Shown here: positions 720-41,850 of the stretch, in pieces | Layout of the letters: the number at the start of each line of letters is the position of its first letter | Position numbering within the stretch: position 1 is the first letter of the stretch | Source: Escherichia phage YD-2008.s | Sequence record: NC_027383.1 | Strand: one strand, 5' to 3' | Length of the DNA stretch: 44,613 nucleotides | Made by a program: the position numbers and the translations under genes | The notes under the pieces: generated by a model | What the model was told of the DNA's origin: nothing | Databases searched by the model: none | What the model saw: only the letters and a program-made list of their open reading frames with translations

Positions 720-994
720 CACCCGAGGGCAAGATTCAAAGTCACCTTATGAAGCTGGTGAAAGCCGTCGGCGGATTCTGCCGCAAAGTGGCCTGGGAGG
801 GGCGCGCAGGTGCGCCCGATCTGATTATCATCATCAACGGCAAGATAGTTTTCGTCGAAGTGAAGCGCCCTGGCGGCAAACCGAAGCCGCACCAGGTACG
901 AGAACATGAGCGAATGGCCCGCCGCGGTGCGGACGTTCGCGTCATCGACAACATAGCCGACTGTGATTTATTGGTTGCTGAATTGGTCGCGTAG
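716..994 (+). CDS. VRR-NUC-like nuclease (PD-(D/E)xK fold), putative
   Basis: 92 aa; ...GAPDLIIIINGKIVFVEVKRPGG... gives a D-x(n)-E-x-K signature; overlaps upstream stop (operon coupling). Confidence 0.55.
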   Translation: MTPEGKIQSHLMKLVKAVGGFCRKVAWEGRAGAPDLIIIINGKIVFVEVKRPGGKPKPHQVREHERMARRGADVRVIDNIADCDLLVAELVA

Positions 995-3405: not shown

Positions 3406-3725
3406 ACACTACATTCGAAGCCATCGACTTTTCAGTGGCAATGACCAATCAGCTTTTTTCCTACGACAGCAAAACAGGCGTTATCCGCCTAAAGTCCACC
3501 GGCTGCAAGATTGGCAACCTCAATACCGCCGATGGCGGTACTCGTATCGAATGCAACGGCAAGACGCTGTCTGGCGCACGCGTGGCGTGGATTATTGAGA
3601 CTGGCAATACAATCCCTCCAGGCTATGCCGTAGTGTGCCGTCAACGCACGCCAGGCCATTACGGCAACCGCATTAGTAACCTGTATCTGGTAGACGTTGC
3701 ACGCGACCCAAATTTTTATTCGTAA
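3402..3725 (+). CDS. hypothetical protein, HNH-endonuclease-like layout (possibly degenerate)
   Basis: 107 aa; ...NGKTLSGARVAWIIETG...PPGYAVVCRQ...GHYGNRISNLYLV resembles HNH_3-type nucleases but the usual catalytic His positions are substituted; ATGA overlap with upstream stop. Confidence 0.35.
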   Translation: MNTTFEAIDFSVAMTNQLFSYDSKTGVIRLKSTGCKIGNLNTADGGTRIECNGKTLSGARVAWIIETGNTIPPGYAVVCRQRTPGHYGNRISNLYLVDVARDPNFYS

Positions 3726-3730
3726 ATTGG

Positions 3731-3759
3731 TTGCATAACCGTATTGGTTGCATTATATT
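3731..3759 (+). promoter_or_regulatory. sigma70-like promoter TTGCAT-N17-TATATT with duplicated ATTGGTTGCAT box
   Basis: -35 TTGCAT 3731-3736, -10 TATATT 3754-3759; intergenic, ~45 bp upstream of ORF 3807. Confidence 0.5.
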
Positions 3760-3806
3760 GAGGGTGTCCGGTTTGGACGCCCTTTTTAATACCCGGAGAC
3801 AGTGCT

Positions 3807-5191: not shown

Positions 5192-5658
5192 AATTACTGA
5201 TTTGCGATTTGGATGGAGTTATTAACGGTTCAAGCGATGCGCGCGCTGACCTGGTGCCGGGTATAAAAACTAAATCCACCTTTTGGGCGAAGTGGCACAA
5301 AGCGCACGTCCGCGAAGACCTGAACATGGATATGCTGCCGCTACTGCGCATGTATAAAGAGCAAGGCTTCGAGATCGCGTATCTGACCAACCGGCAGCGA
5401 GAATGTTGGGACACCACCGCCGAGCAATTGGAGGTCTTCCCGGTAGGCCGGTTGTTTATGCGCCACATGCTGGACGACACCCCGCCGCCTGAGTTTAAAG
5501 CGTGCGCCGTGTTCAAAATGGTATGCTACGCGGACGTGTCGGAACTTGTCATCATTGAAGATTGCGAGAAGAACATCGCGGCAATTCGTCGGGCGTGTGG
5601 TGATTTGGTCCCGAAAATTTACGCAATAAACGTTGCAAAATTCACTTGCAACCAATAG
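5188..5658 (+). CDS. HAD-superfamily phosphatase/nucleotidase-like protein
   Basis: 156 aa; N-terminal DxDGV motif (LICDLDGVINGS) typical of HAD motif I. Confidence 0.55.
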   Translation: MKLLICDLDGVINGSSDARADLVPGIKTKSTFWAKWHKAHVREDLNMDMLPLLRMYKEQGFEIAYLTNRQRECWDTTAEQLEVFPVGRLFMRHMLDDTPPPEFKACAVFKMVCYADVSELVIIEDCEKNIAAIRRACGDLVPKIYAINVAKFTCNQ

Positions 5659-5675
5659 GTTGGTTGCACTATAGT
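5646..5675 (+). promoter_or_regulatory. sigma70-like promoter TTGCAA-N18-TATAGT overlapping an inverted GCAACCAAT/ATTGGTTGC box pair
   Basis: -35 5646-5651, -10 5670-5675; inverted repeat GCAACCAAT agg TTGGTTGCA inside the spacer. Confidence 0.45.
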
Positions 5676-9093: not shown

Positions 9094-9114
9094 AGCTGAA
9101 TCCTCTTAAATTGG

Positions 9115-9143
9115 TTGCATTCTTGGTTGAGCGGTGCAATACT
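9115..9143 (+). promoter_or_regulatory. candidate promoter for the plus-strand lipoprotein gene
   Basis: TTGCAT 9115-9120, N17, AATACT; weak -10; contains TTGGTTGCA box and an inverted TTGGTTGAG/CTCAACCAA pair. Confidence 0.3.
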
Positions 9144-9173
9144 AAAACTCAACCAAATATAGGGGATGATACC

Positions 9174-14457: not shown

Positions 14458-15188
14458 TCTGTGATATTCCCCGGTAGGTCTTTATGACGTACCCATTTAA
14501 CCACATTGTCGCGGAAAAATCCTGACCGGAAGGGTATCACGCTCGACAGACTGCCGTAGATATGGTGTAGTAGTTGGTTGCCCGGAAGGAATATCCCTGC
14601 GTGGTTTGGCACTGGTGCGCTAATCTGCATGATGACCATTGCCCCCGGCGTATTCTCCTCACACTCCCTGAAGCCCGCACCGTACCAATTGTCCATATAC
14701 AGGTTTTCGCCTGTCTCCCACCAGTTATACGGCACGCGGAAGTCTGGCAGGTTTACGCCCTGCTTTTTGTGCCATGCCATGACGAGGCCGTAACAGTCCG
14801 TAACCCCGAGAACAAATCGGCGACCTACCAGCGGCGGGTCTTCAGGGTCGATCTCGATAAAGTCGCCATATTCGTTAGTGATGGTCCAGACTACGCCGCT
14901 GCCGTTGCATCCGTTAACGTCGCCCAGCGAGGGGGTAAGCTCTCGCTGGCCCGGATGCGAGTGGACTACGCGCACTACGTCGCCCATATCCTCGGCATCC
15001 ATCCAGGCCATATCACTAATCGTGAATGCGTCTCTACGTGAACGCACGCCGGTAGGGTCTTCGAATACGTTCATGCACGGGACAAATACTTGTTTGCGGC
15101 CCACCATGACAACCAGGCCACAGGCTTCTTCGGGCAGACATGCCGCAACGTGCGCGGCGATATCGCTTTTAACCTTCTTCGTTAACAT
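14448..15188 (-). CDS. tail assembly protein, lambda gpK-like (MPN/JAMM + NlpC/P60 domains)
   Basis: 246 aa; JAMM-like HSHPG...SLGD motif and NlpC/P60-like Cys/His residues (TDCYGLV...NHAGIF). Confidence 0.65.
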   Translation of the reverse strand: MLTKKVKSDIAAHVAACLPEEACGLVVMVGRKQVFVPCMNVFEDPTGVRSRRDAFTISDMAWMDAEDMGDVVRVVHSHPGQRELTPSLGDVNGCNGSGVVWTITNEYGDFIEIDPEDPPLVGRRFVLGVTDCYGLVMAWHKKQGVNLPDFRVPYNWWETGENLYMDNWYGAGFRECEENTPGAMVIMQISAPVPNHAGIFLPGNQLLHHIYGSLSSVIPFRSGFFRDNVVKWVRHKDLPGNITEWQ

Positions 15189-19267: not shown

Positions 19268-19650
19268 TTTATGCAGTTGCCGTCGGTCATTGTATCAGCG
19301 AATTTAAAACAAACCTTATTCAGTCTCAGACGAGGGGGGCCATTGACCCCCGTCTAGTCTGAAAGACTGGGCTTTGTCCCGCCTGTCCCGATCGGCTAAA
19401 ACCCGCGGCAGCACTGGCTGGGACAGGGGTGCTGTCCCGCTTTGTCCCGCCCAATTCTGCCCCGCTTTTTGTCCCGTTTGTTTTATGCAGAAAAACCGCA
19501 TAGCCATTCACTTTTGAGGGGTGGGACAGATCGGGACAGCACCCCCGTCCCGCTTTTAGTTTATGCAATGAAAGTGAGTATATATGCGGTTTAATGGTGG
19601 CGGGACAAAACGGGACGTCCCGCCTGTCCCGCTTCGTTATGCGGGGTTCT
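19268..19650. repeat. iteron-rich structured noncoding element A
   Basis: ~380 bp without a credible ORF; at least 12 GTCCCGC/GCGGGAC heptamers; hairpin AGACGAGGGGG...CCCCCGTCT; palindromes GGGACAGGGGTGCTGTCCC and CGGGACGTCCCG; core 19307..19480 is homologous to 35962..36135. Confidence 0.6.
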
Positions 19651-25195: not shown

Positions 25196-25225
25196 TTGCA
25201 TTGCGGATGTTGGTCGCATTATATT
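25196..25225 (+). promoter_or_regulatory. sigma70-like promoter TTGCAT-N17/18-TTATATT with TTGGTCGCA/TTGGTTGCA boxes
   Basis: -35 25196-25201, -10 25219-25225; drives a two-gene plus-strand cassette. Confidence 0.5.
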
Positions 25226-25260
25226 GGTTGCACACCAACAGAGATATGAAGGAAAACAAA

Positions 25261-25614: not shown

Positions 25615-26379
25615 ATGAGACTGACGAAAGACATTAAAAATCAGATCCTGGCTAACATCCTGCGCGACCACGAAATCGCTACCGAAGCCAAAACAATCAT
25701 GATGGACTCTCGCGACCTGGCGTACGCAATCACGCGGGACTGTATGCCGGACGGCATTCGCACATTCTCCGCGCTACGCGAGCATATCCTGTTAATCCGC
25801 GATGACCAGTCGCAGATGTACGGCGTCAGCGTATACACCGACAAGGCGACGTATAGTTATAACTCCGACCGCCCGAAGGGTATCGGCAGCGTCTATAACG
25901 CCACCTTTGAAATCAACGCAGGCGGCAATGTTCGCACCTTGTCCTTGAGCGGTGACGGTCGCCAATACCGCGTACATCGCGGGTACTGGGAAGAGAAATA
26001 TATGAATAAGCTCGCGCCTGATCTCGGCGATATCGTTCCGGGGTTCGAGACTGTTATGCTCGCGTCGGTGTGCGAAGTGGACGAGGACGGAAAAGCGCTG
26101 CCGATATATCTCCCACGCGGTCGCGTAGACTACCCGGCGGATCATGATTTCTGTAAGCGCCTGGACCGCAACGACAAGGCACGTCGCGAGTTGCGCGCGA
26201 AGTATGATGCGTTCAAACTAACAGTTACCGGCGTGCTGGATATGCACAATACGGACAAGAAGCTGATTAAGGCATGGCCTGAAGTTGAGCAATTCATCCC
26301 ATACCCGGACAAGCCAAAATCCACGGCGGTGGCGCTGGATGTGAAAACTCTCAACGAGATTTGCGGTATTCCGCGCTAA
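25615..26379 (+). CDS. hypothetical protein (254 aa), island gene 2
   Basis: GAGGA RBS; preceded by a GGGGC gaaa GCCCC hairpin; followed by a terminator. Confidence 0.55.
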   Translation: MRLTKDIKNQILANILRDHEIATEAKTIMMDSRDLAYAITRDCMPDGIRTFSALREHILLIRDDQSQMYGVSVYTDKATYSYNSDRPKGIGSVYNATFEINAGGNVRTLSLSGDGRQYRVHRGYWEEKYMNKLAPDLGDIVPGFETVMLASVCEVDEDGKALPIYLPRGRVDYPADHDFCKRLDRNDKARRELRAKYDAFKLTVTGVLDMHNTDKKLIKAWPEVEQFIPYPDKPKSTAVALDVKTLNEICGIPR

Positions 26380-35165: not shown

Positions 35166-35435
35166 TCATTTGCTCAGTCTCCAGTGTTTGCCTACCCGCT
35201 CAACGGCGTGCTTCCGGCGGATAGTAATACGTATGCCGATTGGTTGCAAGGACGTTTTTACAGCAAGCCCATGCTCCCTGGCGAACTGGTGCAGATAGCG
35301 AGTCTGCGTTAGTGGCTTCACATCGTCGCGATAGCTCCAGAACACAGAATCGCCCTCAATCGCATTCTGCGCCCATATTCGTATGCAATGCAGTGGAATA
35401 TGCCACGAAAGCTGTTTCGCGCGTCTGCGGTCCAT
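35166..35435 (-). CDS. hypothetical protein (89 aa)
   Basis: Basic small protein in the minus-strand operon. Confidence 0.4.
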   Translation of the reverse strand: MDRRRAKQLSWHIPLHCIRIWAQNAIEGDSVFWSYRDDVKPLTQTRYLHQFAREHGLAVKTSLQPIGIRITIRRKHAVERVGKHWRLSK

Positions 35436-35444
35436 TTTGGCCCC

Positions 35445-35750
35445 TTATTTCGCAAGCTGGGCGAATAGTTCGCGCTGGGCTTTAATCCGGGCGACGTTTG
35501 CCACTGCCGTCTCGCCGATCCCGAAGCGATACGCCAGGCGCTCACGGGAGAATGCCTGCGCGAATGTATGGATGGCCTTACGCAACGGCCTCAGTTCGTC
35601 CATGCTGGCGCCCATACCGTAAAGCGCGCTGCGGAGTGATTGATGCGCCAGTATCGCGACCTGAAGCGCCGAGTCTACGTTGCCGTTTAGTGCCTTCGCT
35701 TCGTCCAGCTTTGCCACGGCCAGGGAGTAATTCCAGATAATCGCTTTCAT
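35445..35750 (-). CDS. hypothetical protein (101 aa)
   Basis: First gene downstream of a minus-strand promoter; helical, Ala-rich. Confidence 0.45.
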   Translation of the reverse strand: MKAIIWNYSLAVAKLDEAKALNGNVDSALQVAILAHQSLRSALYGMGASMDELRPLRKAIHTFAQAFSRERLAYRFGIGETAVANVARIKAQRELFAQLAK

Positions 35751-35778
35751 TGTTCAGTCCTCTTGTTGGTGTGCAACC

Positions 35779-35807
35779 AATATAGCTGGGTGCGGGCACG
35801 AATGCAA
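35779..35807 (-). promoter_or_regulatory. sigma70-like promoter TTGCAT-N17-TATATT (minus strand) with two GCAACCAATAT boxes
   Basis: -35 = complement of 35802-35807, -10 = complement of 35779-35784; boxes overlap both hexamers. Confidence 0.5.
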
Positions 35808-35961
35808 CCAATATTAATCACGCGCATGAAAAAGTCGATCGCTATCCGTTGCAACTGCAAACTGCATTTCCCGCCCGCCATTCTGCACCTCGCATTGGTT
35901 GCCTAGTTCATCGACGACCGCAATCCGCAACATGCTGCCGTGTATTTTGCAGTCCTGGATT

Positions 35962-36135
35962 TTATGCAGTCTCAGACGAGGGGGTGACAGACCCCCCGTC
36001 TAGTCTGAAAGACTGGGGTGCTGTCCCGCTGTCCCGCTCCTCGCCAGGCCGCGTCATCCGGGGCGGGACAGGGGTGCTGTCCCGCTTTGTCCCGCCTCCT
36101 GTTTGTCCCGCTTTTTGTCCCGCTTACTTTATGCA
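35962..36135. repeat. iteron-rich structured noncoding element B (homologue of 19307..19480)
   Basis: Same hairpin stem AGACGAGGGGG/CCCCCGTCT with a different loop; GGGACAGGGGTGCTGTCCCGCTTTGTCCCGCC shared block; about 7 GTCCCGC copies; bounded by TTATGCAG on both sides; AT-rich stretch follows. Confidence 0.6.
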
Positions 36136-36229
36136 GTTTTATTGCATAACTATTCATTATATTTACATTACACGGCAACCAATGCGACTAACTAAAAACA
36201 CGCAAAACGGCAACCAATGCGCGCAAAAT

Positions 36230-38504: not shown

Positions 38505-38834
38505 TTATTTGGAAGTTTTATTATTGCGTACCCAGGAGCGCACAGTGCTCTGGTTGATTCCGGTTAGCTCGGCGATCATAGCCCAGGATTTACCTTCCTC
38601 ACGTAGACGGATAACCTGCTTTTTGTATTCTTCCATTTCTTCATTGTGCTTTTGCAGCTTGCTGGCTGCCGTACCGTTGAGTAATTCCAGCTTCGCGCGC
38701 AATTCTTTTTCGGTGAGTCGTAGGCGTTCGATTTCAAATAGCACCGCCCCCACGGCATCGGTATACGCCCAGGACCGGCTTGTTTCACTGCAAACAGTCT
38801 TAGTTAACATTTCGATTGCGTCGTTGATATTCAT
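38505..38834 (-). CDS. HTH DNA-binding protein, candidate transcriptional regulator
   Basis: 109 aa; C-terminal HTH SWAMIAELTGINQSTVRSWVRN; coiled-coil middle; first gene after the divergent promoter region. Confidence 0.5.
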   Translation of the reverse strand: MNINDAIEMLTKTVCSETSRSWAYTDAVGAVLFEIERLRLTEKELRAKLELLNGTAASKLQKHNEEMEEYKKQVIRLREEGKSWAMIAELTGINQSTVRSWVRNNKTSK

Positions 38835-38864
38835 TTTTCTGTCCCCGGTTGGTTAATGACCAAC

Positions 38865-38894
38865 GAAACTACACCTAAAACCGCAGGGTGTCAA
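38865..38894 (-). promoter_or_regulatory. candidate minus-strand promoter TTGACA-N17/18-TAGTTT
   Basis: Perfect -35 TTGACA (complement of 38889-38894), weaker -10; upstream of the HTH gene. Confidence 0.35.
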
Positions 38895-38965
38895 CTCCTT
38901 TGGGATATTGAAACGGGCGCGCACGCGTGTAATAATAATCCCCGTCTCATTGTCTCTTATTGGTT

Positions 38966-39003
38966 AGCGCCGTCGCATTTTGCCTCGGCGCTTTTTTTTT
39001 TTT
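38966..39003 (+). terminator. GC hairpin followed by a T12 tract (terminator-like, or UP element of the next promoter)
   Basis: GCGCCGTCGC atttt GCCTCGGCGC then 12 consecutive T (38992-39003). Confidence 0.35.
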
Positions 39004-39014
39004 GAAATTAGTTG

Positions 39015-39043
39015 TTGACTCCCTTCTGCAACCAATCTAATAT
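39015..39043 (+). promoter_or_regulatory. sigma70-like early promoter TTGACT-N17-TAATAT with GCAACCAAT box in the spacer
   Basis: -35 39015-39020, -10 39038-39043; GGAGAT RBS and ATG 39104 downstream. Confidence 0.5.
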
Positions 39044-39103
39044 TCACTCCGTCGACAGGGCATACCGCCCGGACACCTAAACTTAACCAATCGGAGATAC
39101 ACC

Positions 39104-41525: not shown

Positions 41526-41760
41526 AGTATTCGCAATCTTATTGATGTTTTTGCTAGGCGCACTGGGCTTTATCCTGCATTGCGTGCAAGGCGTGTTAAT
41601 GGTGGCCTGGATGATTCGCCATCCGACCCGCTGGCTGGACGACGGCTATAGAGAAGCTGCCGTCGATTGGGTGGAAAAGAACATCGAACGCCCGCCGTTA
41701 AGCTGGATCGAGAACGCCGTCAACTACGTGACCAGAAATATTTTTAATAAAAGTGCTTGA
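41518..41760 (+). CDS. small membrane protein (80 aa)
   Basis: N-terminal hydrophobic helices AILLMFLLGALGFILHCVQGVLMVAWMI. Confidence 0.45.
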   Translation: MNKVFAILLMFLLGALGFILHCVQGVLMVAWMIRHPTRWLDDGYREAAVDWVEKNIERPPLSWIENAVNYVTRNIFNKSA

Positions 41761-41785
41761 CCGCTTAGGCGCAACCAAGTAAATT
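41757..41785 (+). promoter_or_regulatory. sigma70-like promoter TTGACC-N17-TAAATT with two GCAACCAAG boxes
   Basis: -35 41757-41762, -10 41780-41785; GAGGAA RBS and ATG 41851 downstream. Confidence 0.45.
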
Positions 41786-41850
41786 GGCAACCAAGCCGAA
41801 CGGGGTGGCTCACAATAACCCCGATACATGTGAAAATGAGGAATTGGAAA

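Follow-up and report, generated by a model that had tools for sequence, protein, structure and literature searches.

A Short Asymmetric Box on the Promoters of a Dhillonvirus Genome, a Candidate Operator of a Small Phage HTH Protein

Results

Gene Organization of the Window

The window, i.e., the whole 44,613-nt stretch of DNA analyzed here, was 93.5% identical in its first 25 kb to Escherichia phage SSL-2009a over 94% of its length, and about 150 further Dhillonvirus records also matched it. As judged by these matches, the window is a near-complete Dhillonvirus (HK578/SSL-2009a-like) genome. A gene map was obtained by transferring the SSL-2009a annotation by tblastn, which gave 2,747 nt (6.2%) of intergenic DNA and 41,866 nt of coding sequence (CDS). 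The transcription units are listed in Table 1 together with the promoters, the boxes described below and the candidate regulator. One of the two rightward islands holds a gene for an Nmad5 domain (nucleotide modification associated domain 5; Pfam, 1.1e-58) at 25615-26379 on the plus strand; this gene is driven by the box promoter P5, and its island opposes the direction of the structural genes. An Rfam scan of the window gave no match.

Table 1. Transcription units, promoters, boxes and the candidate regulator in the window.
Feature	Position	Strand	Details
Divergent early control region	38835-39103		
Rightward operon	past window end, resumes at window start to ~6.9 kb		orf51, exonuclease, SSB, DNA polymerase, helicase, methylases
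Leftward operon	down to 9.4 kb		HTH protein, primase-helicase, 479-bp gap, small genes, lysis, terminase, head, tail
Two small rightward islands			cor; orf8 and Nmad5 gene
P1, box ATTGGTTGCT	970-979	+	supplies -35 TTGCTG (975-980)
P1, second box ATTGGTCGCG	982-991	+	in spacer; -10 TATAGT at 998-1003
P2, first box	3726-3735	+	supplies -35 TTGCAT (3731-3736)
P2, second box	3743-3752	+	1 nt from -10 TATATT (3754-3759)
P3, inverted pair	5646..5675	+	reverse box 5647-5656 overlaps -35 TTGCAA (5646-5651)
P3, forward box GTTGGTTGCA	5659-5668		1 nt from -10 TATAGT (5670-5675)
P4, upstream of cor	9110..9156	+	box 9110-9119 supplies -35 TTGCAT, then N17 and TGcAATACT
P4, degenerate boxes	9122-9131; 9150-9156	+; -	
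P5, upstream of orf8 and Nmad5 gene	25196..25238	+	-35 TTGCAT at 25196-25201
P5, box GTTGGTCGCA	25209-25218		1 nt from -10 TATATT (25220-25225)
P5, second box	25223-25232		across -10 and +1; part of palindrome TTGGTTGCACACCAA (25224-25238)
Candidate internal promoter in orf56	35221..35249	-	TTGCAAccaat-N17-TACTAT on perfect box 35239-35248 (+)
P6	35772..35812	-	box 35803-35812 supplies -35 TTGCAT (35802-35807); -10 TATATT 35779-35784
P6, second box	35772-35781		across -10 and +1 (TATATTGGTTGCACACCAACA)
Box ATTGGTTGCC	35894..35903	+	no recognisable promoter; far side of iteron region
Two ATTGGTTGCC boxes	36174..36218	-	36209-36218 and 36174-36183; just after primase-helicase stop codon
Candidate regulator (HTH protein), 109 aa	38505..38834	-	Pfam HTH_23 5.9e-7; Sigma70_r4_2 2.1e-6 (27.7 bits)
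HTH-gene promoter	38849..38894	-	TTGACA (38889-38894), N17, TAGTTT (38866-38871)
Palindrome TTGGTcattaACCAA of box halves	38849-38863		~+3 to +18 of HTH-gene promoter
P(orf51), early rightward	39015..39043	+	TTGACT-N17-TAATAT; reversed box 39027-39036 (GCAACCAAT on + strand), 1 nt from -10
P(SSB)	41757..41795	+	TTGACC-N17-TAAATT, hexamers within 41757-41785; reversed box 41770-41779 touches -10
P(SSB), second reversed box	41786-41795		at about +1

A Short Box Is Enriched in Intergenic DNA and Lies on Promoter Cores

A first-pass annotation of the window had pointed to a recurrent box in its promoter regions, and all of the sites listed there were present, the one placed at 25211 being in fact GTTGGTCGCA at 25209. 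We found that the box, ATTGGTTGCA, 9-10 bp in length, is positioned at the core of nearly all early and middle promoters. In the motif scan with a shuffled-sequence control that the annotation had proposed, the exact sequence ATTGGTTGC was observed 13 times, as compared with 0.55 expected, and none of 100 shuffles reached 13. A weight matrix built from 17 sites carried about 14 bits; these lie in A-TTGGTTGC, and A is weakly preferred at position 10. At a threshold of at least 12 bits this matrix found 21 sites, as compared with 4.2 in Markov simulations. Seventeen of the 21 fall in the intergenic 6% of the genome or in the last codons of genes; the other four, deep inside genes, equal the background expectation. 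The imperfect boxes at 14573, 17921 and 39987 were at chance level.

The sequence TTGGTTG was counted 15 times in intergenic DNA (2,747 nt) and 6 times in CDS (41,866 nt; odds ratio 38, p = 2.5e-14), and the similar density inside genes that the annotation had named as evidence against its proposal was thus not seen. Its statement that the box does not occur inside coding sequence holds in that the distribution is strongly intergenic, but sites 970 and 982 (P1) are within the final 25 codons of the endonuclease gene, with the Lar-like and helicase genes downstream of P1, site 5647 (P3) is within the final 4 codons of orf32, and the perfect 10-mer at 35239 is inside orf56. The claim that every promoter carries the box was too broad, as the core of the candidate promoter at 38908-38936 is free of boxes and the 26-kb late region has no intergenic box except 25209/25223. 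Furthermore, the boxes at 39027 and 41770/41786 are reversed boxes in the spacers of plus-strand consensus promoters, rather than parts of minus-strand TTGCAT promoters.

The promoter at 38908-38936, TTGAAA-N17-TGtAATAAT, belongs to a plus-strand unit (38908-39001) upstream of the rightward early promoter, in which a hairpin GCGCCG...CGGCGC with a 12-T run follows about 55 nt later. The transcribed part of this unit holds the box-like ATTGGTTAGC, and the sequence is highly conserved, with the T run varying from 8 to 12 among relatives. The unit could represent a small RNA, or the T run could be an UP element.

Literature searches with the motif string and on the promoters of Dhillonvirus, HK578 and SSL-2009a retrieved no description of the box or of transcriptional control in these phages, and a scan of IMG/VR for paired boxes returned mostly unrelated tandem repeats, giant-virus contigs among them. 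Readings as a sigma-54 promoter (GG-N10-GC), a DnaA box, Chi or a CspA/Y-box (ATTGG) were rejected, as these showed mismatches in spacing or sequence and the motif is clade-specific.

Arrangement of the Boxes Relative to the Promoter Elements

The boxes occupied several distinct places at the promoters. Forward boxes acting as the -35 element read ATTGG-TTGCAT, followed by N17 and then by TATATT, TATAGT or TGcAATACT, and the start of the box was always 28 nt before the -10 (P1 at 970, P2 at 3726, P4 at 9110 and P6 at 35803). Reversed boxes served as the -35 element, TTGCAAccaat, at P3 (5646; 18-nt spacer) and at 35249 (17 nt). Other forward boxes lay within the spacer, separated from the -10 by 1 nt at 3743, 5659 and 25209 and by 7 nt at 982, or spanned the -10 and +1, with the common sequence TATATTGGTTGCACACCAACA, at 25223 and 35772. 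At the near-consensus promoters P(orf51) and P(SSB), a reversed box touches the -10 within the 17-nt spacer, and a weaker AACCAAT is present at about 39078, near P(orf51). The palindrome of box halves, TTGGTcattaACCAA, is located just after the -10 of the HTH gene's own promoter. Finally, the iteron region that follows the primase gene is bordered by three boxes, two at one edge (36209 and 36174) and an inverted one at the other (35894). The former two are upstream of a TATAAT and of the GCGGGACA iterons, and a box there overlaps the -35 zone at a different offset from the -10; the existence of a promoter P7 at this place is uncertain.

Overall, both orientations of the box occurred, and its placement with respect to the -10 took at least four forms. 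Two boxes are present at most promoters, with variable spacings of 9, 12, 13, 14, 16, 17, 31 and 35 bp and in mixed orientations. P6 is the first promoter of the leftward operon, which runs from orf55 through the lysis, terminase and structural genes. A 37-aa "orf54" of the SSL-2009a annotation (35750-35860, minus strand) exactly overlies P6 and its two boxes, and is probably not a gene. P3 and P5 have a common upstream segment, GCAAAATTCRCTTGCA.

Conservation of the Box among Relatives

The annotation had suggested conservation in related phages as a further check. The promoter regions were aligned with 4 to 15 unique relatives each (SSL-2009a, HK578, Ioannina and IMG/VR contigs), and 91.5% of the box columns were invariant, as compared with 54% of the neighbouring columns, many of which are coding (Fisher p = 1e-21). 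At P1 both boxes were invariant in 11 unique relatives. At P2 all 18 box columns were at least 86% identical, 17 of them invariant, and the 7 nt between the boxes varied. Both boxes of P6 were almost invariant in 14 unique relatives, in which the 17-nt spacer was freely variable, and box 35894 was invariant in 14 unique relatives with varying flanks. Site 25209 of P5 is a perfect ATTGGTTGC in SSL-2009a, HK578 and Ioannina, and the box of the candidate promoter inside orf56 is present at the matching place in the same three phages.

The box was also kept in metagenomic sister lineages. Exact TTGGTTGC occurred 9 times in 6.1 kb of L020 (primase about 69% identical), 13 times in 20 kb of each of L140 and L141 (primases about 68% and 66% identical, respectively; about 1 expected in each case), and 13 times in 20 kb of L143. 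The first three share about 71% nucleotide identity with the window where alignable, and in all three the distance between the forward box and the -10 is again 28 nt. As in the window, the sister lineages carry reversed boxes in the spacer of the early TTGAC promoter, and the layout of P(orf51) recurs in all four; the P6 equivalent of L143 has the -35 box only. No enrichment of the box was found in Cornellvirus FSL SP-031 or Kagunavirus K1ind2, whose primases are 41-44% identical. These data, all of them read from sequence, indicate that the box is a real, strongly conserved and clade-specific cis-regulatory element.

One of the two readings offered by the annotation was an extended promoter consensus. 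In its strict form, the box would serve the host sigma-70 holoenzyme only, with copies arising by common descent or cassette duplication and with no dedicated binder. The use of the TTGCA end as the -35 hexamer at six sites (P1, P2, P4 and P6, and reversed at P3 and 35249) agrees with this, and the GCAAAATTCRCTTGCA segment of P3 and P5 suggests duplication. However, a placement proper to a -35 element, 16-18 nt from the -10 in one orientation, is shown only by the forward boxes 970, 3726, 9110 and 35803 and, in reverse, by 5647 and 35239; it does not apply to 982, 3743, 5659, 25209, 25223, 35772, 35894, 36174, 36209, 39027, 41770 and 41786. Boxes next to or across the -10, reversed boxes in TTGAC spacers, the promoterless box 35894, and the occurrence of two orientations at four or more positions cannot be accounted for by a promoter consensus. 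In addition, the ATTGG half lies outside the usual contacts of sigma-70 with the -35 hexamer and is nevertheless invariant, and the adjoining spacers diverged freely whereas the boxes did not, even at about 71% genome identity. We therefore regard the consensus reading as correct only in part, and a pure promoter consensus as improbable.

The HTH Protein as Candidate Regulator

The other reading was that the box is the operator of a regulator, for which the HTH protein encoded at 38505..38834 had been named as the candidate. An AlphaFold2 model of this protein (pLDDT 86.6) consists of a short helix, a 59-residue helix (residues 21-79) and a C-terminal HTH (84-107). When the model was compared with the PDB by Foldseek, the matches were local and of a generic HTH kind only (DeoR, LuxR/GerE, resolvase and sigma region 4; E > 0.8), and a sequence-profile search of the PDB yielded no useful match. 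We rejected the possibility that the protein is a sigma factor, as only a region-4-like HTH was present and region 2 was not matched; the NCBIfam sigma70-ECF profile scored 21.4 bits against a cut-off of 42.9. Among 20 small or unassigned proteins scanned with Pfam, 10 early ones of which were also scanned with PHROGs, no other DNA-binding domain was found.

The HTH family comprises 26 clusters among 5.8 billion proteins. In the phage collection its matches are genomes of the Dhillonvirus type, a few of which were deposited with the names of other hosts, and no homologue was found there in Cornellvirus or Kagunavirus. The last 60 residues of the protein are almost invariant and the first 45 are hypervariable, which may reflect a partner-binding or defence-exposed surface; the N-terminal third (38700-38834) is replaced outright in HK578 and several metagenomic lineages. 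In the HTH proteins of HK578 and L143, with 36-44% identity, residues T91, G92, I93, N94, S96, T97 and W101 are all kept.

All 8 genomes or contigs that carry the HTH family showed enrichment of the box, and neither of the 2 related genomes that lack the family did. The motif thus goes together with a matching protein encoded by the same genome and is missing where the protein is missing, a co-occurrence that is confounded by shared ancestry, as all box-bearing genomes form one clade. At the promoter of the HTH gene, a reversed full box takes the equivalent place in L020 and L140, and L141 has a reversed box at the same coordinate; HK578 has no palindrome there, which counts against the operator reading. 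Profile searches and contig look-ups found no lineage with a joint change of the HTH domain and the box, which was identical everywhere. In particular, L143, the HTH protein of which is 44% identical and differs in several residues of the recognition helix, retains an unchanged box, and this also speaks against the HTH protein as its reader. As seen in these sequences, nothing else in the clade is conserved as strongly as the HTH domain and the box, and the two occur together, a correlation within one clade.

The binder might instead be a host DNA-binding protein, or a phage protein without a recognisable DNA-binding fold. The link between the box and the HTH protein is correlative, many small early ORFs have no annotation, and the persistence of the box in L143 despite the changes in the recognition helix fits another binder as well. 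On the other hand, the box is absent from related Guernseyvirinae phages of E. coli and Salmonella, which have the same or closely related hosts, and we know of no E. coli regulator with this box consensus. The parallel conservation of the HTH domain and the box also argues for the HTH protein, and we consider a different binder to be rather unlikely.

Box-Derived -35 Elements and the Sigma-70 Scan

A generic sigma-70 scan detected the TTGAC promoters and P3 and missed P1, P2, P4, P5 and P6, which have TTGCAT or TTGCTG as the -35 element; TTGCAT matches only 3 of the 6 consensus bases. This raises the alternative that the box is a factor-dependent promoter element, in which a protein bound to the forward box at -40 to -31 would replace or assist region 4 of sigma-70. 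The same protein would also repress the TTGAC early promoters through the reversed boxes in their spacers, giving an early-to-middle/late switch like that of T4 MotA/AsiA or phi29 p4. In accordance with this, the 28-nt distance is exact at P1, P2, P4 and P6 and in three sister lineages, the -35 elements concerned are weak and escape the scan, the orientation of the box differs between the two promoter classes, the HTH matches profiles of sigma-70 region 4, and the P6 equivalent of L143 keeps just its -35 box. However, the extra boxes at the -10 and +1 (3743, 5659, 25209, 25223 and 35772) would block the polymerase. TTGCAT preserves the critical TTG, together with a 17-nt spacer and a good -10, and can therefore function unaided; the -35 of P5 is a TTGCAT that lacks a full box, and the proteins scanned (20 with Pfam, 10 with PHROGs) included no homologue of AsiA or MotA. 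We consider a factor-dependent element, the main rival of the operator reading, to be unlikely.

The Iteron Element and the Late Region

An element of about 200 nt occurs twice on the minus strand, at 35950-36140 after the primase-helicase gene and at 19290-19480 within the 700 bp that separate the tail chaperone and tape-measure genes. Overall, the two intergenic regions with these copies are 75% identical, and more so in the core. Both copies contain GCGGGACA repeats, of which there are 13 in the genome and none in CDS, and an almost invariant imperfect palindrome, CAGTCTTTCAGACTAGACGGGGG-loop-CCCCCTCGTCTGAGACTG, that is kept in the sister lineages. The element showed no informative covariation and no Rfam match. 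It is probably an origin, or else a cis-acting RNA, and its second copy is possibly a second cis site, by analogy with P4 ori/crr.

The repeats by the primase-helicase gene differ between sister lineages, being CGGGAC (7 copies) in some and GGTGCC (9 copies) in others. The switch was located at 12573-13076 in L141 and 12600-13131 in L143, as compared with 35861-36229 in the window, and it leaves the flanking ATTGGTTGC boxes and the palindrome unchanged. This suggests that the iterons were swapped together with the specificity of their initiator; none of the primase-helicase domains clearly follows the change of iteron type. L140 and L141 have different repeat types and near-identical HTH domains, and the HTH protein therefore does not follow the iterons and is not their binder. 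With origin binding excluded as its main alternative job, the box is left as its likely target.

The boxes themselves are not origin iterons, as the clustered repeat is a different sequence (GCGGGACA, or GGTGCCA in L141 and L143) that the boxes only flank. They could nonetheless be primarily DnaA-box-like sites that organise replication or the origin, with their location on promoters being secondary. Three to six boxes flank the iteron region by the primase-helicase gene in every lineage, and one of the flanking boxes is promoterless. However, the promoter cores on which most boxes lie are far from the iteron region, and the second copy of the iteron element (19.3-19.6 kb) is boxless in the window; a primary role in replication therefore appears very improbable.

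The late operon (9400-34000, minus strand) contains many terminator-like hairpins, several of them with the stem AAAGGGGC (6 copies, all intergenic). The 26-kb late region showed no excess of sigma-70-like sites and no convincing internal sigma-70 promoters. Since hairpins are abundant and convincing internal promoters absent, late transcription may need read-through or antitermination.

Discussion

We propose that ATTGGTTGC(A) is an asymmetric operator of 9-10 bp for a phage regulator, most probably the HTH protein, which would mainly block promoters. To this proposal as a whole we give roughly an even chance. That the box is bound at all, that the HTH protein binds it and that repression is the effect are each what we infer from the patterns described above. 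Of the two readings of the first-pass annotation, an HTH operator is the one that fits all sites, the co-occurrence, the parallel conservation and the box-like site after the gene's own -10; the sites also coincide with the core elements of promoters, and their conservation exceeds that of the flanking sequence.

Since the boxes sit on the -35, the -10, the +1 and the spacers of consensus promoters, a bound protein must be expected to interfere with the polymerase. The proposed mechanism is as follows. The boxes are placed on the -35, beside the -10 or spanning the -10 and +1, and, at the regulator's own promoter, just past the -10, and a protein bound there would compete with the host sigma-70 RNA polymerase. 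The TTGCA end of the box would double as the -35 hexamer, and because of this reuse the fixed 28-nt distance would arise without an activator. Repression alone could account for every site, with the one after the regulator's own -10 representing autoregulation. In the simplest reading, the outcome would be an autoregulated, genome-wide turn-down of transcription, Cro-like in its logic and acting through many asymmetric sites. Because most promoters carry two boxes at variable spacing, the arrangement suggests cooperative or multivalent binding, possibly via the long helix of the protein.

Some of the observations sit uneasily with such an operator. The spacings and mixed orientations would be unusual for a rigid coiled-coil dimer, and repression of every promoter, P6 included, calls for an additional explanation of late expression. 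Under a repressor, the late genes might be reached by read-through with antitermination, or the repressor might be titrated by replicated genomes, both of which are speculative.

A more far-reaching possibility is that one small HTH protein resembling sigma region 4 runs the whole transcription programme of a genus of virulent siphophages. In that case the reversed boxes would shut off early transcription, the forward -35 boxes would turn on middle and late transcription by replacement of region 4, the boxes at the iteron element would couple origin transcription to the switch, and the hypervariable N-terminal domain would contact the polymerase or evade host defence. If true, this would represent a MotA-like appropriation of sigma, independently invented and without an AsiA partner. 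We see it as a long shot.

Returning to the HTH operator, promoter-overlapping operators of a phage HTH protein belong to a conventional class of mechanism, and it is the box that is apparently undescribed. Dhillonviruses are common E. coli phages that are present in the BASEL collection and used in studies of phage defence and phage therapy. The GenBank record of HK578 has three annotated consensus promoters and no more, to which the box would add about 10 candidate promoters and a candidate master regulator, giving a concrete and easily tested map of the regulatory circuit. A compact candidate pair of operator and regulator might also serve phage engineering.

Comparison with Known Systems

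The closest parallels in arrangement are the operators of P1 C1 and the operators/stoperators of gp71 of mycobacteriophage L5, which are asymmetric sites, present in about 15-30 copies, mostly in short intergenic regions, many of them overlapping promoters, and bound by immunity repressors of temperate phages. The Dhillonvirus genus is, as we take it, virulent. The box resembles these systems in having asymmetric, scattered intergenic sites, many of them on promoters, and one regulator, here a candidate; there is no sequence relationship. Unlike the stoperators of L5, which have a single orientation with respect to transcription, the box has two. The annotation of SSL-2009a contains no integrase and none was detected among the window proteins scanned, and the box is thus not of the L5 stoperator type of a temperate repressor. 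The stoperators are cited in PMC11447400.

As in lambda Cro/CI, a small HTH gene lies in a divergent early control region, the sites overlap the -35 and -10, and a site at the gene's own promoter suggests autoregulation. In contrast, the lambda operators are 17-bp palindromes confined to two control regions, whereas here single or paired asymmetric boxes lie at 10 or more promoters with variable spacing. The resemblance to the T4 MotA box consists in a phage-specific box that stands in for a consensus -35, with a fixed spacing to an ordinary sigma-70 -10. Unlike the MotA box, the box described here is also found in spacers, across the -10, in reverse and away from promoters, and the MotA and AsiA families were not found in the protein scans described above.

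The T1-like phage TLS has about 18 conserved intergenic repeats of 21 nt, aaATAGCACnnnTTGnTAAAA, upstream of genes, the function of which is unexplained (PMC11447400). Both cases concern a virulent E. coli siphophage with few consensus promoters and conserved intergenic elements. The TLS repeats show that elements of this kind are common among virulent coliphages and frequently go without an explanation. The two elements differ in sequence and length, and the TLS repeats all point along the direction of transcription. Furthermore, no candidate binding protein has been proposed for the TLS repeats, in contrast to the box described here, for which the HTH protein is the candidate.
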